Positions 6,673 through 64,000 of a DNA stretch of 64,000 bases are shown here, piece by piece. Each line of letters starts with the position of its first letter. Position 1 is the first letter of the stretch. A program made the position numbers and the translations under genes. The notes beneath the pieces were generated by a model, which made no database searches, had not been told where the DNA came from, and worked only from the letters and a program-made list of their open reading frames with translations. Source of the stretch: Nitrosopumilaceae archaeon (GTDB lineage: Archaea > Thermoproteota > Nitrososphaeria > Nitrososphaerales > Nitrosopumilaceae); the NCBI GenBank assembly GCA_965208905.1, contig OZ242365.1, forward strand, positions 96,001 through 160,000, read 5' to 3'.

Positions 6673-6755
6673 GTCAGGATAGCCAAGTGGTTACGGCGGC
6701 GGTCTCGAAAACCGCTACGCGCAAGCGTGCAAGGGTTCAAATCCCTTTCCTGGCG
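6673..6755 (+). tRNA. tRNA-Ser(CGA)
   Basis: Acceptor GTCAGGA/TCCTGGC+G, anticodon arm GCGGT-CTCGAAA-ACCGC, long variable arm, T-loop GTTCAAATC; TATA-like TATATA near 6644. Confidence 0.93.
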
Positions 6756-6956
6756 CTACTCATAGAAACTATATAGTTAAGGACAAATCATGTATAACTC
6801 TTAAATACTCTTTTGGTCTATATACTATGAAGAGAAATGCCATATGAAGAAGTTTGTTACCAGAGACTAGAAAGAGAAAATCCGGAGGAATACCGGTCAT
6901 TACGTAACAAAAAATAAAACTCATCTCTTTTTCTGACATGTCTGATGTGTTCTTAA

Positions 6957-7100
6957 GGGAATTATATACAAAAGTACACAGCCTCGGCTGTACACTCATG
7001 CCTTTTCTGACGGCCTCGTTGTATGGAGCGGAGCATGGCGGGTGTTGGCTTGTAGTCCTCCTTGTGCCCCGGCCGTCTTAGGACGACGTTCCCCGCCGCC
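6957..7100 (-). ncRNA. Putative omega/reRNA scaffold overlapping tnpB 3' end (homologous copy at ~20544-20690)
   Basis: Minus-strand pairings GACGGCC/GGCCGTC and hairpin AGTGTACAGC-CGAG-GCTGTGTACT are kept in copy 2 through G-U substitutions; position is typical of TnpB omegaRNA. Confidence 0.6.
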
Positions 7101-8314
7101 CTATACAGAATATTCCAGGCGGCATTGACATCCGCGTGGAATACCCCGGTACAATTAGTGCAAATGAACTTATCGCGTGATATACGCGACTCTGAATCTA
7201 CGTGACCACACACATGGCACATCTGGCTCGTATATTTGGCCGATGCCCCCAACAGCGGTATGTTGTGCATCTCACACCACTGCGCAAGCTTGCGCAGGAA
7301 CTCCCCAACATGGTTCTCCCGCATTGAACGGTTCATGGCGCGTTTGTAATTCCCGCCATGTGTGGTCATGTCTTTTACGGAGAGCGACTCGACCACGACT
7401 GCGTCCATACCATTAGTTATCTGCGCAATCGTCTGATTTATGGTGTTCGCAGCTATGTTGTTGGCCTTCCTGTATAGCCGCTTTATTTGATCATTCAATA
7501 TATGCCACTTCCGGCCATGCCGTGTCTTGCGGTCGCGCAAACTCTTGAGAGCGTCAATATCCCGCAGGATTGCTCTATGGCGGGTGTTGTGTATTGTAAC
7601 GTTGCCGTCCGTATCTACCGTGACGGCGAGATGCTTGCCGCCCACATCAACGCCACGCATTACACCCGTAGTATGGTGCGACTCTACCGGTTCATGTATG
7701 GCAATATGCAGCTCAAACATGTGGTCTGATGGTTTGGTATGCTTGTCTATACGTTTGGTGACATCAACTATCTTGAATGAGCGCATGTCCCATAATACAT
7801 TGATGGGCTTGGCGGTCTCTGCAATACCATATCCGGGGATATGTATGGTGCGCTCACCTTTTCGTACAGGCGGATTTACACTGTATAGTATGATGCGGCC
7901 GTCTTTGCGGCGGTATGGCGCATGGCCGGAGTTGTCATCCATGACTATCCTACATGCGACGGATGCATCTTGTATGGCGCCCCTGCCAAACACCATAGGC
8001 AAGTCAGATACCCATACATGTTCAGCGCGCCACTCCGTAAGCTGCTTGAACATGCCGTACTTTAATGCCATCTTTGACGGCCCAAAATCATATGTATGGT
8101 AGTCATCGTCCAGCATACCTGATGTAAAATCCAGCTTGCCCGGCAGTTTGAAGGGCTGCAGGATGTCCACTACCACCCTCTCCATATATTCGCCACCAAA
8201 CAAATACTCTGATACGGCGCGGTTGTACACATATCTTGACGCATGATTCGTGCGGTGCGCCCACTCTGCAAACAACACAGCCCTCCGTAGTGGTACCTTA
8301 ACTATCCGTACCAT
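6962..8314 (-). CDS. tnpB: RNA-guided endonuclease TnpB
   Basis: RuvC-I GVDVG, RuvC-II VVESL, zinc finger CHVCG..CTNC, RuvC-III HADVNAAWNI; catalytic D/E/D intact; stop codon lies inside the TIR. Confidence 0.92.
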   Translation of the reverse strand: MVRIVKVPLRRAVLFAEWAHRTNHASRYVYNRAVSEYLFGGEYMERVVVDILQPFKLPGKLDFTSGMLDDDYHTYDFGPSKMALKYGMFKQLTEWRAEHVWVSDLPMVFGRGAIQDASVACRIVMDDNSGHAPYRRKDGRIILYSVNPPVRKGERTIHIPGYGIAETAKPINVLWDMRSFKIVDVTKRIDKHTKPSDHMFELHIAIHEPVESHHTTGVMRGVDVGGKHLAVTVDTDGNVTIHNTRHRAILRDIDALKSLRDRKTRHGRKWHILNDQIKRLYRKANNIAANTINQTIAQITNGMDAVVVESLSVKDMTTHGGNYKRAMNRSMRENHVGEFLRKLAQWCEMHNIPLLGASAKYTSQMCHVCGHVDSESRISRDKFICTNCTGVFHADVNAAWNILYRAAGNVVLRRPGHKEDYKPTPAMLRSIQRGRQKRHECTAEAVYFCI

Positions 8315-8426
8315 AATATATAATACGGTATGCTGGTATTTAAAGGGAGTTGTATGGACGCGATCCGTGGTTCAGGCATTAACTCTCAGAATCGGGGTTG
8401 TGTACTTTTGTATATAATTCCCGTTC

Positions 8427-8741
8427 TTAACTATGGTGTCCCGGACCCACCATGTCTTCGGCCGGCACTTCGTTGTCCCATTTACCTCTATATCCCTTAA
8501 CCAAAGCGAATATTCCGGCACCGATCAGTCCCAACACCAATCCAAAGAATGCCATCGAATATGATGCGCCAACGCCACAATCGGCAGGTTCGGGCGGACC
8601 ATCTTCAGAGTAATTCATACAGTCGTTGAACTCTGCATTCTGTACATTGATGTCACGGTATTGGTCTCCAAAGACGCCCAACACCAAAAATCCAGCAAAC
8701 ACCAAAGCCACACCGACCATAATAAAACGTATATCACTCAT
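8427..8741 (-). CDS. Small two-TM membrane protein
   Basis: Two hydrophobic helices flank a Cys-containing loop. Confidence 0.75.
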   Translation of the reverse strand: MSDIRFIMVGVALVFAGFLVLGVFGDQYRDINVQNAEFNDCMNYSEDGPPEPADCGVGASYSMAFFGLVLGLIGAGIFALVKGYRGKWDNEVPAEDMVGPGHHS

Positions 8742-20543: not shown

Positions 20544-22013
20544 GGGAATTATATACAAAAGTACACAGCCTCGGCTGCACACTCAAGCCTTTTCTGACGA
20601 CCTTGTTGTATAGAACGGAGCATGGCGGGTGTTGGTTTGTAGCCCTCCTTATGCCCCGGCCGTCTTAGGACGACCTTCCCAGCCGCCCGATGCAAAATAT
20701 TCCAGGCGGCATTAATATCCGCGTGGAATACCCTGGTACAATTAGTGCAAATGAATTTGTCGCGCGTGATACGCGACTCTGAGTCTACGTGTCCGCACAT
20801 ATGGCACGTCTGGCTCGTATATTTGGCCATCACCCCGCATAGCGGAATTCCCTCCCTCTCACATCGCTGCGCCAACTTCCTTAGAAACTCACCAAGTCTG
20901 TTCTCCCGCATGGAGCGATTCATGGCGCGTTTGTAATTCCCGCCATGTGCAGTCATGTCCTGTATAGATAATATCTCGGCTATGATGGCATCCGCACCTT
21001 GTACGATATATGATACCGTCTGGTTTATGGTGTTTACGGCGATGCCATCAGCCTTCCTGTATAATTGCTTTATTTGGTCGTTTAAAACACACCACTTCCG
21101 GCCATGCCGTACCTTGTGGTCGCGTATACTCTTGAGAGCGTCTATCTCCCGCAGTATTTCTCTGTGGCGCGTGTTGTGTATTGTGACATTGCCGTTTGTG
21201 TCAACAGTGACTGCCAAGTGCTTACCTCCCACATCCACACCCCGTACTACACCCGTATTACGGTGCGGCTTTACCGGTTCATGCACTGCGATATGTAATT
21301 CAAACATGTGGTCGGACGGCTTTGTATGCTTGTCCACCCGTTTGGTGACATCAACTATCTTGAATGACCGCATATCCAATGATGTATTGATTGGCTTGGC
21401 GGTCTTTACTATACCATATCCGGGTATTCGTACAGTATGATCATCCTTCCGTACAGGTGGGTTTGCGCAACTAAGTATGATGCGGCTGTCTTTACGGCGG
21501 TATGGAGCGTGGTTGGAGTTATCATCCATAACTCTTCTACATGCGATGGAGGCATCCTGTATGGCGCCACGGCCAAACGATACAGGACATTCGCGCAGCC
21601 ATGTATGTTTGGCGCGCCACTTCGTAAGCTGTTTATACATGCCGTACTTTAGTCTCCTCTTTGATGGACCAAAGTCATATACCTGGTAGTAATCGTCCAG
21701 TGTACCGGATGTAAAACCATCTAGTGTGTTTGGTAGTTTGAATGGCTGCAGGATATCAACTACCACCCTCTCCATATATTCACCACCAAACAAATACTCT
21801 GAAACGGCGCGGTTGTACACATACCGTGTAACATGGCCCATGCGGTGCGCCCACTCTGCAAACAACTCATCCCTTCGCAATGGTACCTTGACTATCCGTA
21901 TCATGATGTGTCATACGGTATTATGGTATTTAAGGGGATTGTTGTATCACGAAATCTGTGTTGGGTCAACATTGACTCTCAAAACAGAGACTGTACTTTT
22001 GTATGTAATTCCC
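20544..22013 (-). mobile_element. TnpB-only element copy 2 with 22-bp TIRs (1 mismatch), no TSD
   Basis: GGGAATTATATACAAAAGTACA at 20544-20565 vs TGTACTTTTGTATGTAATTCCC at 21992-22013; flanks AATAAAAA and AAATTTTT differ. Confidence 0.88.
20549..21904 (-). CDS. tnpB: RNA-guided endonuclease TnpB (paralog of 6962-8314)
   Basis: GVDVG, IIAEIL, CHMCG..CTNC, HADINAAWNI; homologous to copy 1 over its full length. Confidence 0.92.
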   Translation of the reverse strand: MIRIVKVPLRRDELFAEWAHRMGHVTRYVYNRAVSEYLFGGEYMERVVVDILQPFKLPNTLDGFTSGTLDDYYQVYDFGPSKRRLKYGMYKQLTKWRAKHTWLRECPVSFGRGAIQDASIACRRVMDDNSNHAPYRRKDSRIILSCANPPVRKDDHTVRIPGYGIVKTAKPINTSLDMRSFKIVDVTKRVDKHTKPSDHMFELHIAVHEPVKPHRNTGVVRGVDVGGKHLAVTVDTNGNVTIHNTRHREILREIDALKSIRDHKVRHGRKWCVLNDQIKQLYRKADGIAVNTINQTVSYIVQGADAIIAEILSIQDMTAHGGNYKRAMNRSMRENRLGEFLRKLAQRCEREGIPLCGVMAKYTSQTCHMCGHVDSESRITRDKFICTNCTRVFHADINAAWNILHRAAGKVVLRRPGHKEGYKPTPAMLRSIQQGRQKRLECAAEAVYFCI

Positions 22014-43028: not shown

Positions 43029-43978
43029 TGCTCAGGCTAATAATGCCCACACATAGTATCTGTTCAGGACGGTCCGGTGGGCCAACGGCCTGTTCTGCCC
43101 ACGTTGCGGCGGGGTTGATATCGTCCGATACTGCCGATACCGGGGACACGTCCGGAGGTACACATGCAAGGGCTGCCGCCGGACCTTCAACGACAAGACT
43201 GGAACTATTCTTCACTACCGGCACGTCCGGATGGGAGACTGGATGCTGGCGGTCTGGATGTTCCTGTGCGGGCCGCCCAACGGGATATCGATAAACTACA
43301 TTGCAACTTCGATAGGCCGCGCCTACGGGGCCGTCTACCAGATGTACCGCGACATCATGCGGAAGGTGGGCGAGCTGCCGGAGGGCAAGCTGTCCGGGAC
43401 GGGAGAGACCGATAAGGGATACACCAGAGCCGGCTCCAAGGGGGTGTCACCGGGCAGCAACGGCGAGAACCGGACTGTCCCCAGCCGCCGCCGACTGCCC
43501 CGCGGTCCGGGCAGGGGCACCTTCGAGAAGAATGTACCGATGGTCACCATCTACCATCAGCGGGCCGCAGAAGGCGAACCGGATGTGACAATCTTCGAGG
43601 TTCCCCGTGGCGACGGCAAAACGCTGGCCGAAATGGTGGCCGAAAAGTTCGAACCGGGCTCGACGGTGATCACCGACGAGCATCCCGCCTACAAGAGCCT
43701 TGGGGAGATGGGATATGGCCACTTGGCCATCAACCACAGCGAGGGCGAGTACGCATCAGGCGAGCACAACGAGTTTCATACCAACAACTACGAGTGCCGT
43801 ATAGGTCTGCTGTATATGGTGGCTGAAAAAACACCGCGGCGTGAGCAAATGGCATCTGGAACGATACGTCAAGTCTTTCCAGTTTGTTCACAACCACAGG
43901 CACTATGGCATCAATGGTAGGTTCGTGGCTGCGCTAGCCGCCATCCTTGACCAATATGCCGGGAGACAAGCCTGACCA
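43029..43978 (+). mobile_element. IS1595-family (ISXO2-like) element with frameshifted transposase
   Basis: Zn ribbon CPRC..CKGC, ETD, ITDEHPAY, NHS, HTN; ends TGCTCAGGCT / AGCCTGACCA; degenerate 8-bp TSD AGATGGAA / AGATGTTT. Confidence 0.8.
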
Positions 43979-60689: not shown

Positions 60690-61757
60690 ATGACACGCGA
60701 AGACCACGGCAGACGCATAGCATCAGAGAATAGAATTAGAAAACTGGGCAGGAACTCATACGCTGTACCATCTGAGACTATACAGAACCATGAGTATGTA
60801 GTACGACTGGGCAAGGTGGGATGGGTGTGTGAATGCCCCGACCATACTGAGAAAAAATCAGTATGTAAGCACATACACGCAGTCTTTGTATTTCGCAAGC
60901 CGGAGGCGCGTTCCATCTGGTATGTACCGGAAATACAGTGCCCCAAATGCCTTAGTAAACAGACGATATCGCGGGGCCAGAGCAGGTACTGTAAAATATG
61001 TAACTCGCGCTATGTACCTTATGGAATAAAGTCCCGTTTTGGGCTAGACACAATCATAGAGGGAATGAATATGGTGTATAGTGGTAGCTCACTCCGCAAG
61101 ACCGAATACATATTGGCGCAGCGCGGAATAGACGTATCGCATATAGGCATACTGAAATGGCTCTCCAAGTATGGCACAATGGTTGATGAATACATCAAGA
61201 CACTCCGGCCACGGGTTGGCGACCATTGGAGAATCGATGAAGTTTACATGAGTGTAGCCGGTGTACGGATGTATGCGTTTCATATGCTAGATACCGAGAC
61301 GCGATACGTAATAGACAGTATGGTTTCAGAGAATAAAGGCACGGATGATGTGCGACCGCTGTTCAGGTCATGCATGAATATAGCCGGCAAGAAGCCGTAT
61401 TTGTTGTCATCTGACGGTGCGGGGAATTTTGGTGAGGCGTGGCGCGATATATATAAACAGAAGAATCCGCGCGACATGTATACTATACATGAGAGTAAGG
61501 CTCGTGACAAGACCCCACTGCACAACAACCAGATGGAGTCGTGGAATGGGAATACGTTTAGGCTGCGCGAGCAGGGGTGTCGTGGATTGAAAAAACAGGA
61601 CTCTGTGATTCTGGCAGGGATACGAATCTACCATAATTTTATACGCCCACATCTTGCGCTGGGTGGAGATGTCCCGGCTGAGAGGGCAGGACTGCGTCTT
61701 GAGGGAGTGAATGGCCTCAAGATTTTAGTCCAGAATGCCGCGATGCAGAAAAAGTAA
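60690..61757 (+). CDS. IS6-family DDE transposase with N-terminal SWIM and Zn-ribbon
   Basis: CECPDH..CKH SWIM, CPKC..CKIC, WRIDEVY, SDG, NNQME; intact ORF. Confidence 0.88.
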   Translation: MTREDHGRRIASENRIRKLGRNSYAVPSETIQNHEYVVRLGKVGWVCECPDHTEKKSVCKHIHAVFVFRKPEARSIWYVPEIQCPKCLSKQTISRGQSRYCKICNSRYVPYGIKSRFGLDTIIEGMNMVYSGSSLRKTEYILAQRGIDVSHIGILKWLSKYGTMVDEYIKTLRPRVGDHWRIDEVYMSVAGVRMYAFHMLDTETRYVIDSMVSENKGTDDVRPLFRSCMNIAGKKPYLLSSDGAGNFGEAWRDIYKQKNPRDMYTIHESKARDKTPLHNNQMESWNGNTFRLREQGCRGLKKQDSVILAGIRIYHNFIRPHLALGGDVPAERAGLRLEGVNGLKILVQNAAMQKK

Positions 61758-61875: not shown

Positions 61876-61936
61876 GGAACTGTCAAAAACTTGTGTGATG
61901 GCGTACACTGTCAAATTTGTGTGATGGTGTCAAAAA
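61876..61936 (+). repeat. Putative end of a second IS6 element with subterminal direct repeats
   Basis: GGAACTGTCAAAAA start; ACTGTCAAA..TTGTGTGATGG at 61879-61901 and 61907-61927. Confidence 0.55.
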
Positions 61937-62017
61937 GGGTACACGAATAGAAAAAGAACAACAAACAAACAACCTTGTAGTGTGATAATTTAAATGTGCA
62001 TGTTGTGTATATTGTAC

Positions 62018-62359
62018 ATGGAAAAAACACAAGATACGCCTCTTACCCGCGAAGAGTTTACACAATTCATGGCCGGATTTACTAAAGACCTGAATGTTGC
62101 GTTTACCAACTTTTCTGACAGTATAGACACCCAAATTATTCACATCTTTATGCGACTTGATGATATTGACCGAAGGATAGATAGGTTGGAAAGTAGAATA
62201 GGTAATATCGGGAGTAAAGTAGACAGTATGGGAAGTGATGTACATGACATAAAGAATGAGACAAAACTCATAACACCAATCTTTGAGTTGACACGTATGG
62301 ATGGGCATGATATTGGAGAACTCAAATTACGTGTAAGGAAATTAGAAACTCAATCCTAA
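62018..62359 (+). CDS. Small coiled-coil protein
   Basis: Heptad pattern RLDDIDRRIDRLESRI..RVRKLE; convergent with the transposase. Confidence 0.65.
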   Translation: MEKTQDTPLTREEFTQFMAGFTKDLNVAFTNFSDSIDTQIIHIFMRLDDIDRRIDRLESRIGNIGSKVDSMGSDVHDIKNETKLITPIFELTRMDGHDIGELKLRVRKLETQS

Positions 62360-63492
62360 ACATTTTTCTGTTGTTTAATATATGATTTAGTTGCAGCCTG
62401 TATCATCGTAAGATATTTGTTGTCTCCTTCAATATGTATTCCTGCGACCTCACCGGGTGTTTGGCCATCCAAACCAAGATGTGGTCTTACATAATTGTGG
62501 TATATGCGCAAGCCTGATAGTATAGCCGAATCATCTTTCTTCAAGCCACGTGTTACCTTCTCTCTATGTCGTAGTGTGGCACCGTTGAAGGATTCCATTT
62601 GGTTGTTGTTCATGTCACCAGCTAGATGTATGTGTCGCTCATGTTTAGATTCTTTGTGTAGAAAGTTCTTTGCTGCATACTGTTTCTTGTGGGCATGACT
62701 AAAGTTAGATGCACCATCTGATGTTAGTTGTTCTGGTACCTTGCCCGCTAACTGTTTGGCCTGTTTAAACATGGGTGCTACATCGTCATTACCCTTGTGT
62801 TCTGCGACCATCTTGGCCAGCCAGAATCTAGTCTCCGAGTCCAGCATGGCAAACAGGTATTTTCGTTCACCCTTTATCTTTAGATACATTTCATCAGTAC
62901 GCCACTTTTCACCAACTTGGGGCTGTATCTTATCCATGAACTTGTCCATCAAACGTGAATACTCGGTAGCCCAATTCAATACGGTTTGATGTGTAACCTT
63001 GACATTCATTCCCTTTAATGTAAATGCAGTCTTGCGGGTTGACAAACCACTAAACACCAAGTCAACAGCCATTGTAATCTGTTCAGGTGTGGCATGTTTG
63101 CCTTCAAAGCCTAGATTCTGTGTGAACCGTTTACCACAGTCTTTACACTTGTATTGTTGTACATTACCCCTTTTGAGTCGCCGTATGCTGTCCTTGACTA
63201 TATGTATAGAATCACAGAACTTACACTTTCCCAAGTCTATTTGTTTGATGGTAACTGATTGCTTGACGGCCTCACGCATTTTGCGTGATATTTCAACAGC
63301 ATGAATGTGCTTGCAGCATACATGTCTATATGTATGGTCAGGGCATGAGCATGTATAGCCACGTTCAGTAGATATTACATCATACTGCTTGTCGCTTGAC
63401 TGTGAGTTTACTTTGTATTCGGTGTCTGTTACACGGAATATTTGGTTTTGTTGTTGTGCTATTATTTTACCACGTTCTTGCCTAGTCGTCAT
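62356..63492 (-). CDS. IS6-family DDE transposase with SWIM and Zn-ribbon
   Basis: CSCPDH..CKH, CKFC..CKDC, WRTDEMY, TSDG, NNQME; ATG at 63492. Confidence 0.9.
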   Translation of the reverse strand: MTTRQERGKIIAQQQNQIFRVTDTEYKVNSQSSDKQYDVISTERGYTCSCPDHTYRHVCCKHIHAVEISRKMREAVKQSVTIKQIDLGKCKFCDSIHIVKDSIRRLKRGNVQQYKCKDCGKRFTQNLGFEGKHATPEQITMAVDLVFSGLSTRKTAFTLKGMNVKVTHQTVLNWATEYSRLMDKFMDKIQPQVGEKWRTDEMYLKIKGERKYLFAMLDSETRFWLAKMVAEHKGNDDVAPMFKQAKQLAGKVPEQLTSDGASNFSHAHKKQYAAKNFLHKESKHERHIHLAGDMNNNQMESFNGATLRHREKVTRGLKKDDSAILSGLRIYHNYVRPHLGLDGQTPGEVAGIHIEGDNKYLTMIQAATKSYIKQQKNV

Positions 63493-63664
63493 TATGTATA
63501 GGCCTCCAAAAACATAAATTGAAAACAAGTGTCAAGAGCTCTGAACGTTACAACCAGTTCACGGATTGCCTTTTGGGCGATCTCATTTTTCCTATCCTTC
63601 ATCATTGCTTTTCTTGCTTGCTTCATGTACTACTATGGTAATTTCCCATATATATAGTATACCA

Positions 63665-63684
63665 ATTTACCATATATGGTAAAT
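63665..63684. promoter_or_regulatory. 20-bp perfect palindrome between divergent promoters
   Basis: ATTTACCATATATGGTAAAT equals its own reverse complement; AT-rich TATA-like boxes on both sides. Confidence 0.6.
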
Positions 63685-63716
63685 AATTATATAATGTAAT
63701 ACTGGTAATTATTATA

Positions 63717-63872
63717 ATGAGTAGTACACAGGTAAAAGGTGATTATTGGTGCCATGAATGTAATCGCTGTGGCAATATATGGTATAGTAAGAATCAAACT
63801 CCCAAAAACTGTGCAAACATGAAGTGTAAATCTCCATACTGGAACAAGCCTAGAATACGTATTCCGAATTAA
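63717..63872 (+). CDS. 51-aa zinc-finger microprotein
   Basis: Hand translation MSSTQVKGDYWCHECNRCGNIWYSKNQTPKNCANMKCKSPYWNKPRIRIPN; below the ORF-track size cutoff. Confidence 0.7.
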   Translation: MSSTQVKGDYWCHECNRCGNIWYSKNQTPKNCANMKCKSPYWNKPRIRIPN

Positions 63873-63897
63873 GGAGAAATCGACAGCCTTGCAAAAT

Positions 63898-63939
63898 TAC
63901 AATGCAATACTGCGTACAATGCAATACTGCGTACAATGC
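63898..63939 (+). repeat. 17-bp tandem repeat TACAATGCAATACTGCG x~2.5
   Basis: Read directly from the sequence. Confidence 0.8.
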
Positions 63940-64000
63940 TCTAGATGATTACCTACAATATGAACCAACTGGGGGCCATCTATGAATGCCCGGCATTGCG

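Follow-up and report, generated by a model that had tools for sequence, protein, structure and literature searches.

How does a gene for an RNA-guided nuclease travel when it lies, with no transposase gene beside it, between the long inverted ends of what looks like a DDE-type transposon, and what might the nuclease do for the DNA that carries it? Both questions are raised by a 1466-bp element at positions 6957-8422 of the window, by which we mean the whole 64,000-nucleotide (nt) stretch analyzed here (G000:C1:96001-160000), a part of the 2.21-Mb, single-contig genome (G000) of a Nitrosopumilaceae archaeon. The sole gene of the element is tnpB. We consider it very likely that the element is a transposase-less cassette of the IS1595 type, that its only cargo is a complete TnpB/omega-RNA module, and that it works in the way proposed below.

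An inverted-repeat scan of the window paired 6957-6986 with 8393-8422 at 28 of 30 nt (93% complementarity), and the outermost 24 nt of these terminal inverted repeats (TIRs) are perfect, as a preliminary description of this DNA had claimed. That description had also reported an exact 8-bp target-site duplication (TSD), which is found as GTTCTTAA at 6949-6956 and 8423-8430, directly outside the TIRs. Both ends of two copies of the element carry the 21-mer GGGAATTATATACAAAAGTAC, which makes four occurrences in the window against none in 100 dinucleotide-preserving shuffles. As anticipated, there is no transposase gene: from the list of open reading frames (ORFs) and Pfam searches, only the tnpB ORF has a family match. 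The features of the locus, each with the evidence that places it, are as follows.

6937-6956, minus strand: predicted guide template of the omega-RNA, made up of the TSD copy at 6949-6956 and about 12 nt of flank, read directly after the element end (placed from geometry, with an assumed length)
6949-6956, no strand: TSD on the tnpB 3' side, GTTCTTAA (sequence reading; the empty site in the sister genome G005 has a single ATTCTTAA)
6957-6986, no strand: TIR at the tnpB 3' end, including the tnpB stop codon (inverted-repeat pair)
6957-7200, minus strand: candidate omega-RNA scaffold overlapping the tnpB 3' end, with a provisional 5' limit (fold z-score, RNAalifold)
6968-7001, minus strand: predicted 3'-terminal stem-loop of 11+3 bp whose 3' arm is the inner TIR, followed by an 11-nt single-stranded tail at 6957-6967 (folding)
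6962-8314, minus strand: tnpB, intact, 450 amino acids (ORF, Pfam, structure-chain alignment)
8338-8345, minus strand: TATA-like box TTTAAATA, about 27 nt upstream of the ATG at 8314 (sequence reading; a putative archaeal promoter)
8393-8422, no strand: TIR at the tnpB 5' end (inverted-repeat pair)
8423-8430, no strand: TSD on the tnpB 5' side, GTTCTTAA (sequence reading, copy table, empty-site alignment)
8431-8434, minus strand: ATAG (plus strand: CTAT), a motif that adjoins the upstream TSD on its 5' side and resembles a target-adjacent motif (TAM); it is part of the target DNA and no part of the element, and is also in the empty G005 allele
20544-22013, minus strand: second, diverged copy (80% nucleotide identity) with an intact tnpB at 20549-21904, without a TSD and without the upstream motif

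One TIR includes the stop codon of tnpB (6962-6964), and the opposite TIR is 78 nt away from the ATG; given this arrangement, and since no second pair of ends is visible, an IS605-type element nested in a miniature inverted-repeat transposable element (MITE) was rejected as a description of the cassette. If the cassette did begin in that way, it has been streamlined since.

The gene had been called intact, with the RuvC D/E/D residues in place, and this is borne out by the protein: it matches PF07282 (1.5e-15) and PF01385 (1.2e-08), and alignment to the TnpB-like chains 9yyg_A and 8iaz_A identifies D223 (GVDVG), E309 (VVES), and D395 (HADVN), along with a CxxC...CxxC zinc ribbon. The diverged second copy is likewise real, with a TIR that has one mismatch in the 21-mer and an intact TnpB of 451 amino acids that is 79% identical to that of the first copy; its two flanks, AATAAAAA and AAATTTTT, differ, which means that it has no TSD. 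A DNA search of the genome recovered 16 full-length copies of this family, which we call E1466, at 77-100% identity, plus fragments; the TIR is conserved across the 16. All 11 E1466 copies examined keep an ORF of 450-451 amino acids, at synonymous divergence (dS) of up to about 1, and the ratio of nonsynonymous to synonymous substitution rates (dN/dS) is 0.10-0.32 in eight of eight pairs of E1466-family copies. On these codon comparisons, the TnpB cargo appears to be under purifying selection and not to be passive.

Tabulated over the 16 full-length copies, the TSD is an exact 8-mer in 12, matches at seven of eight positions in 1, and is absent from 3, giving a duplication in 13 of 16. When 27 copies, taken from four genomes, are aligned, they cease to resemble one another precisely at the terminal ...AATTCCC, so homology does not extend beyond the TIRs. 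In the sister genome G005, whose flanks are 94-98% identical to those of G000, the orthologous empty sites carry a single 8-mer instead of two at all three sites tested, namely those of the copies at 102957 and 456071 (E1466 family) and 239554 (the 1.6-kb family, another tnpB family of this genome). G005 is the closest relative searched, and it has almost no E1466-family DNA (one 82-nt match only); the 5' end of the 1.6-kb family gave no DNA match in five genomes of the genus, G005 included. Because G005 is almost free of both, the E1466 and 1.6-kb expansions in G000 look recent. Sponge-associated metagenomes hold this DNA. In assemblies of four public sequencing runs (Logan), 8- to 14-kb DNA contigs end inside both TIRs, as expected at a repeat, and no contig joins across the element. 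A search for related loci with a single protein query returned four loci, all from one close relative, and a word-indexed protein search returned 47 proteins forming a narrow family, with Cenarchaeum sp. metagenome-assembled genomes as the source names among the matches listed. One E1466 copy is itself split by a 1109-bp IS630-like element (DDE_3, 335-amino-acid transposase; G000:C1:1973364-1974472).

Which transposase could move such a cassette? A Y1 TnpA (PF01797) was found neither in G000 nor in any of 10 genomes of the genus, in a search whose control was positive in 6 of 14 reference genomes; a serine recombinase (Resolvase domain, PF00239) was not found in G000 either, with the control positive in 12 of 14 reference genomes. 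No relative with these ends and a Y1 TnpA is thus present among the genomes so searched. The genome does hold four intact IS1595 elements (2131, 2131, 2690, and 2837 bp), with transposases of 313-320 amino acids that match PF12762 at 1e-40, all of them with GGGAATTATA... termini and exact 8-bp TSDs; resident IS1595 transposase genes lie at G000 1770102-1771043, 1045415-1046377, and 676416-677366. The terminal nucleotides identical to those of the window element number 13 for the 2690- and 2837-bp elements and 10 for the 2131-bp pair. By manual count, the TIRs of autonomous IS1595 elements in genomes G037 and G008, as well as solo ends in G000, match the TIR of the window element at about 19-22 of 23-25 nt. 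In G015, a genome from another genus, an intact IS1595 transposase occurs together with tnpB cassettes that have an identical 24-nt TIR and 8-bp TSDs.

Since TnpA is absent, the resident IS1595 elements share termini and TSD length with the cassette, and the two coexist in G015, mobilization in trans by an IS1595 transposase is the best-supported mechanism. The element is a non-autonomous derivative of the IS1595 family type, and not an autonomous member, because its only ORF with a family match is tnpB. The central claim of the preliminary description, a non-autonomous cassette moved in trans by a DDE transposase, is in this way upheld by the TSDs, the empty sites, the lack of TnpA, and the resident IS1595 elements, from which we infer the exact partner.

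The 3' end of the element may also encode a guide RNA. The last 264 nt fold with a z-score of -4.77 against shuffles, and RNAalifold on 27 copies gave compensatory changes in 9 of 50 pairs. A 3' hairpin with the inner TIR as its 3' arm, followed by 4-12 unpaired nt before the terminus, is predicted in 11 of 11 elements folded, with stem sequences that differ among families; an equivalent hairpin is absent from the 5' ends of the same 11. This terminal hairpin agrees with the guide-adjacent stem of TnpB and Fanzor RNAs as given in the available part of Yoon et al. (2023, 10.1101/2023.08.09.552727). An Rfam E-value search of 6700-8700 returned no omega-RNA family, only a partial tRNA and a chance match. 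Two RNA libraries gave contigs that overlap tnpB in part, including its 3' end; since DNA was possibly present in these libraries, and since neither strand nor ends are readable from the contigs, they are not counted as evidence of expression. The same goes for one of them, 433 nt long, that extends past the 3' end into DNA flanking the copy at 1972621.

The window element is one of many. The TnpB TNB domain has 75 matches in the genome, treated here as 74 loci, which fall into about eight deep families with IS1595-type and IS6-type ends interleaved. A genome-wide scan found 38 elements with a GG-initiated TIR pair and an 8-bp TSD. Ends of the type GGGAATTATATAC occur on three tnpB families (E1466, the 1420-bp E1420, and the 1639-bp E1639), GGTTCCTCCCGCAA ends with exact 8-bp TSDs on over 25 additional tnpB elements of 1.5-1.6 kb, and GG(A/C/T)(G/A)CTGTCAAATCTT ends on a third tnpB group. 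At least one of these three TIR motifs is present at 58 of the 74 loci, both ends are present at 40, and none of the three was found at 16. On the transposase side, 13 IS6/IS240-like genes lie above the Pfam cut-off, and two intact IS6-like elements have 8-bp TSDs and restriction-modification-like cargo. The element at 926302-927837, with GGTTCC-type TIRs, holds a decayed IS6-like transposase (tblastn with an intact IS6-like transposase, 3e-13 and 4e-12); Pfam gave no match for its 117-amino-acid ORF fragment. In a quick maximum-likelihood tree of 60 TnpBs, the TIR class changes at least six times, and E1420 is sister to the 1.5-kb GGTTCC family. The TIR classes being so interleaved, it follows that the tnpB module has switched shells repeatedly.

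Several individual elements of the genome deserve mention here. At G000:C1:924780-927837, 8 nt separate a 1.5-kb tnpB element from the decayed IS6-like element; the two share a single outer TSD (TTAAACTC) in place of individual ones, and the pair look like a composite moved by the outer TIRs. Two identical 1639-bp tnpB elements (G000:C1:1455264-1456902 and 2049469-2051107) have TAATTTCC to the left of one and to the right of the other. Swapped flanks of this kind suggest recombination between the copies, with an inversion of about 596 kb, and such recombination may be the cause of copies without a TSD. Autonomous IS6-like and IS1595 elements with DNA methylase, HNH, or restriction-like cargo are present at G000:C1:18695-22054, 1043578-1046414, and 1770047-1772736, and two of the four intact IS1595 elements carry an N6/N4 methylase-HNH gene, one of these split; the DDE shells of this genome therefore carry several kinds of nuclease and modification genes. 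Another cargo cassette is a 2075-bp element at G000:C1:1903198-1905272, which has perfect GG-TIRs, an exact 8-bp TSD (CCTAAAAC), and no transposase; its 406-amino-acid ORF is repeat-rich, with recurring LDLTDPYNI-like units.

What might TnpB do for these elements? A possible answer comes from the DNA next to the insertions. Elements were oriented by tnpB, and the bases directly 5' of the upstream TSD were compared with those at the 3' ends, against a genome background of 0.229 for G content and 0.070 for the TA dinucleotide. Three families each have a motif of their own, on the tnpB 5' side only: ATNG in E1466, WTA in the 1.6-kb family, and ATTG in the 1.5-kb family. Among 12 E1466-family 5' ends, A is at -4 in 10, T at -3 in 9, and G at -1 in 11, compared with G at -1 in 5 of 18 3' ends. 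The 1.6-kb family (n = 15) has T at -2 in 14 and A at -1 in 14, with no motif at 13 3' ends, and the 1.5-kb family (n = 9) has TT at -3/-2 in 8 and G at -1 in 6, with no motif at 11 3' ends. Because it is already there in the empty G005 alleles of both E1466-family sites, the motif is a property of the target. It also sits where a TAM is required, since a guide that starts with the downstream TSD makes the uninserted allele read as motif, one TSD, and flank. It seems to us about equally probable that the motif is, or is not, the TAM of each family's TnpB. At the 239554 site of the 1.6-kb family, the empty G005 allele (L079) reads catG-CATTATCA and G000 reads catA-CATTATCA; this one-base difference, in the final position of the TAM-like motif, could be due to chance or could mark a cleavage-resistant allele.

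We propose the following sequence of events. Resident or closely related IS1595 transposases would bind the TIRs and move the cassette in trans, making the 8-bp duplication by staggered cuts at insertion. A TATA-like promoter of its own would drive transcription of tnpB, and an omega-RNA would be made from the tnpB 3' end, comprising the inner-TIR hairpin and the 11-nt tail and then reading into the flank, so that the guide would start with the 8-bp TSD and continue with flanking DNA. An allele that never received the insertion, or that lost it by precise excision, would read [motif]-[one TSD]-[flank] and be a perfect target if a TAM adjoins the TSD on its 5' side; TnpB could then cut empty alleles and force repair from the occupied copy, as has been shown for IS605 TnpB, resulting in homing or retention. 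The other tnpB families of the genome with IS1595-type or IS6-type ends would share this arrangement. The motif could have become enriched because homing or retention makes TAM-adjacent sites persist, or through help in target choice, and TnpB-driven homing or retention would explain the purifying selection on the cargo. As a broader and more tentative proposal, to which we give somewhat less than an even chance, TnpB modules have been repackaged repeatedly in IS1595 and IS6 shells, with the variable 8-bp TSD as the start of the guide and the TAM just outside it, an arrangement not known from IS605 or Fanzor. If this is true, nearly every surviving insertion has the TAM of its TnpB family exactly 8 bp upstream, and either TnpB homing or retention selects which DDE insertions persist or TAM-bound TnpB helps to place the DDE transpososome.

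Several points weigh against this account. The only near-invariant base of the E1466 motif is the G at -1, which is weak for a TAM, and the E1420 family has no clear motif at four ends. Three of the 16 full-length copies, the second copy in the window among them, have no TSD, and two of those three also lack the upstream G. The compensatory pairs in the RNA fold rest on about two sequence clades and overlap coding sequence. An autonomous DDE element with the same TIR, which the preliminary description had envisaged, exists in part: the resident IS1595 elements share the 8-bp TSD and 10-13 terminal nt, and none found in the genome has the full 24-nt TIR. Lastly, if IS1595 transposition were replicative, a role for TnpB in retention would be less obvious.

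The alternative that survives best also takes the elements to be moved by DDE transposases but regards the motif as the asymmetric target preference of a dedicated transposase for each TIR type, with TnpB as passive or host-directed cargo that takes no part in targeting or retention. The motif does track the extended TIR as well as the TnpB family: E1639, which belongs to a different TnpB clade and has the same 23-nt TIR, also has G at -1 (2/2), an observation that counts against the TAM interpretation and fits transposase preference equally; the TIRs of the 1.5- and 1.6-kb families differ from position 15 on; and two MITEs with GGGAAT ends show G|T in one orientation. However, the motif is strictly one-sided even though both TIRs are identical over 24 nt, and the ends of autonomous IS1595 elements do not show it (G at -1 in 4/15). 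The G at -1 is moreover kept in relatives in genome G006 whose TIR differs after nt 13 (4/5 of those with a TSD), and it is present in G015 (2/2). The dN/dS values argue that TnpB matters for the spread of the element and was not simply carried along. On balance, we think this alternative unlikely, though it is a serious competitor.

Far less probable is a reading in which TnpB, unaided or together with a host factor, acts as the transposase and makes the 8-bp duplication beside its TAM, the resemblance of the ends to those of DDE elements being mere similarity. The numbers are suggestive, since tnpB has about 74 loci in a genome with 4 intact IS1595 transposase genes and about 13 of IS6-like type, and insertions do lie at a fixed distance from a motif specific to the TnpB family; in addition, no autonomous element has the full 24-nt TIR, and the only transposase element found with GGTTCC-type ends is decayed. 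Against these stand the MITEs and transposase-bearing elements with the same termini and TSD length that coexist in this genome. Known TnpB cleavage takes place well downstream of the TAM and not 0-8 bp from it, and to our knowledge no strand-transfer activity has been described for a RuvC-type TnpB. Hardly tenable, finally, is an ordinary IS200/IS605 (IS1341-group) tnpB-only element moved by a Y1 TnpA, with TIRs and TSD coincidental: the lone tnpB and the subterminal 3' hairpin would suit it, and mobile-element surveys of this archaeal group file such elements there (in the part of PMC6563490 available), but it leaves unexplained the 28/30-nt TIRs, the 8-bp TSDs of 13/16 copies, and the empty sites with one 8-mer, and it is at odds with the lack of Y1_Tnp in 10/10 genomes of the genus and of a hairpin at the 5' end.

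The proposed arrangement, a TnpB cassette moved in trans by a DDE transposase, is of a kind that is already known. In the passages at hand, Altae-Tran et al. (2023, PNAS, PMC10691335) report six DDE-associated TnpB branches, DDE-1 to DDE-6, as well as solo TnpBs between ends like those of transposase-bearing elements, for which trans-mobilization was proposed. The elements described here resemble these in having a prokaryotic tnpB between inverted repeats with its 3' end near the transposon end, and in that the ends of the window element are common to transposase-bearing elements, while a decayed IS6-like transposase lies between GGTTCC-type TIRs; unlike theirs, no element here joins tnpB to an intact DDE gene. 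The DDE partners named are IS630 in the main text of PMC10691335 and ISL2, IS630, and IS1031 in a 2026 review (PMC13565253), which, in the part we draw on, treats the TnpB-DDE association as rare in prokaryotes and offers possible reasons. Neither IS1595 nor IS6 is named as a TnpB partner in the main texts of these two papers, whose supplements may list them; the word IS1595 is absent from the main text of PMC10691335, where the matches displayed for words starting with IS6 were names of the IS605/IS607 type, and a search of titles and abstracts found no literature linking TnpB to either family. A one-sided motif beside a variable 8-bp TSD was not met in any of the literature passages at hand. 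The preliminary description had presented the locus as a prokaryotic parallel to the capture of Fanzor by DDE transposons; mobilization of a TnpB by DDE elements is supported, but the parallel is not new, having been in print since 2023 in the passages cited (PMC10691335). What is new is the IS1595 and IS6 partners, the repeated exchange of shells, and the variable TSD as putative guide start, together with about 74 tnpB loci in two DDE shells, the dN/dS values, the inner-TIR 3' hairpin in every family folded, and the one-sided motifs of three families.

Fanzor, the eukaryotic TnpB, is reportedly carried by DDE transposons that have both TIRs and TSDs (Bao and Jurka 2013). The likeness to Fanzor lies in a TnpB homologue as cargo of non-autonomous elements with TIRs and TSDs and in a TIR that contributes to the final stem-loop of the guide RNA (10.1101/2023.08.09.552727, available part). 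The short, fixed TSD of Fanzor elements is taken to belong to the TAM, and the scaffold includes the 3' TSD (PMC13565253, same part); here, by contrast, the TSD is 8 bp long and variable, and it would form the first 8 guide nt, with the TAM outside. Like the IS1595 family, its MITEs, and its mobile insertion cassettes, the window element has TIRs that start with GGG, an 8-bp TSD, and termini that are found on autonomous copies in the genome, and cargo-carrying relatives exist here in the form of autonomous copies with methyltransferase-HNH genes. Unlike an autonomous IS1595 element, it has no transposase, and its cargo is an RNA-guided nuclease whose candidate RNA appears to use the TIR at its 3' end. 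It resembles the IS1341 group in its protein family (PF01385 and PF07282), in its approximate size, in having no gene but tnpB, and in a hairpin close to the 3' end; that family has no TIRs or TSDs and needs a Y1 TnpA (PMC4810608 and PMC13565253, relevant parts), and all three fail here. IS200/IS605 elements insert 3' of a fixed 4-5-nt site without a TSD. The earlier statement that IS200/IS605 and IS607 elements make neither long TIRs nor 8-bp TSDs agrees with these sources, according to which both families lack TIRs and TSDs altogether (PMC4810608, PMC13565253). IS607 differs further in its serine recombinase TnpA, which is not found in G000.

The finding bears on what TnpB does for DDE transposons. 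One genome here offers a natural test bed, with dozens of recently active tnpB cassettes, two DDE shells, candidate transposases, empty sites in a sister genome, no confounding TnpA, and a predicted TAM for each of three TnpB families; it also supplies compact archaeal TnpBs of 450 amino acids, for each of which a TAM and a scaffold are predicted. Should the motifs prove to be TAMs, so that the guide starts with the 8-bp TSD, RNA-guided homing would be compatible with variable-target transposons, and the passage of TnpB from one transposon superfamily to another in the lineage leading to Fanzor would become easier to understand.

The preliminary description had placed both IS6 and IS1595 families in the window, and both are there: PF12762 matches at 43459-43773, and PF13610 matches at 61224-61640 and 62524-62907. 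The former belongs to an IS1595-like remnant at 43231-43920, with a 229-amino-acid ORF and a partial PF12762 match at 56 bits. The two IS6/IS240-like transposase genes lie at 61224-61640 and within 61876-64000; one of them is held by a 3688-bp element (G000 157876-161563, TSD GTCAATAC) that extends past the window end. Near the tnpB element, a tRNA-Ser(CGA) gene lies at 6673-6756, about 200 bp from the insertion, and the right-hand TSD overlaps the stop codon of a small membrane-protein ORF on the minus strand (8427-8741), placing the insertion exactly at the end of that gene.

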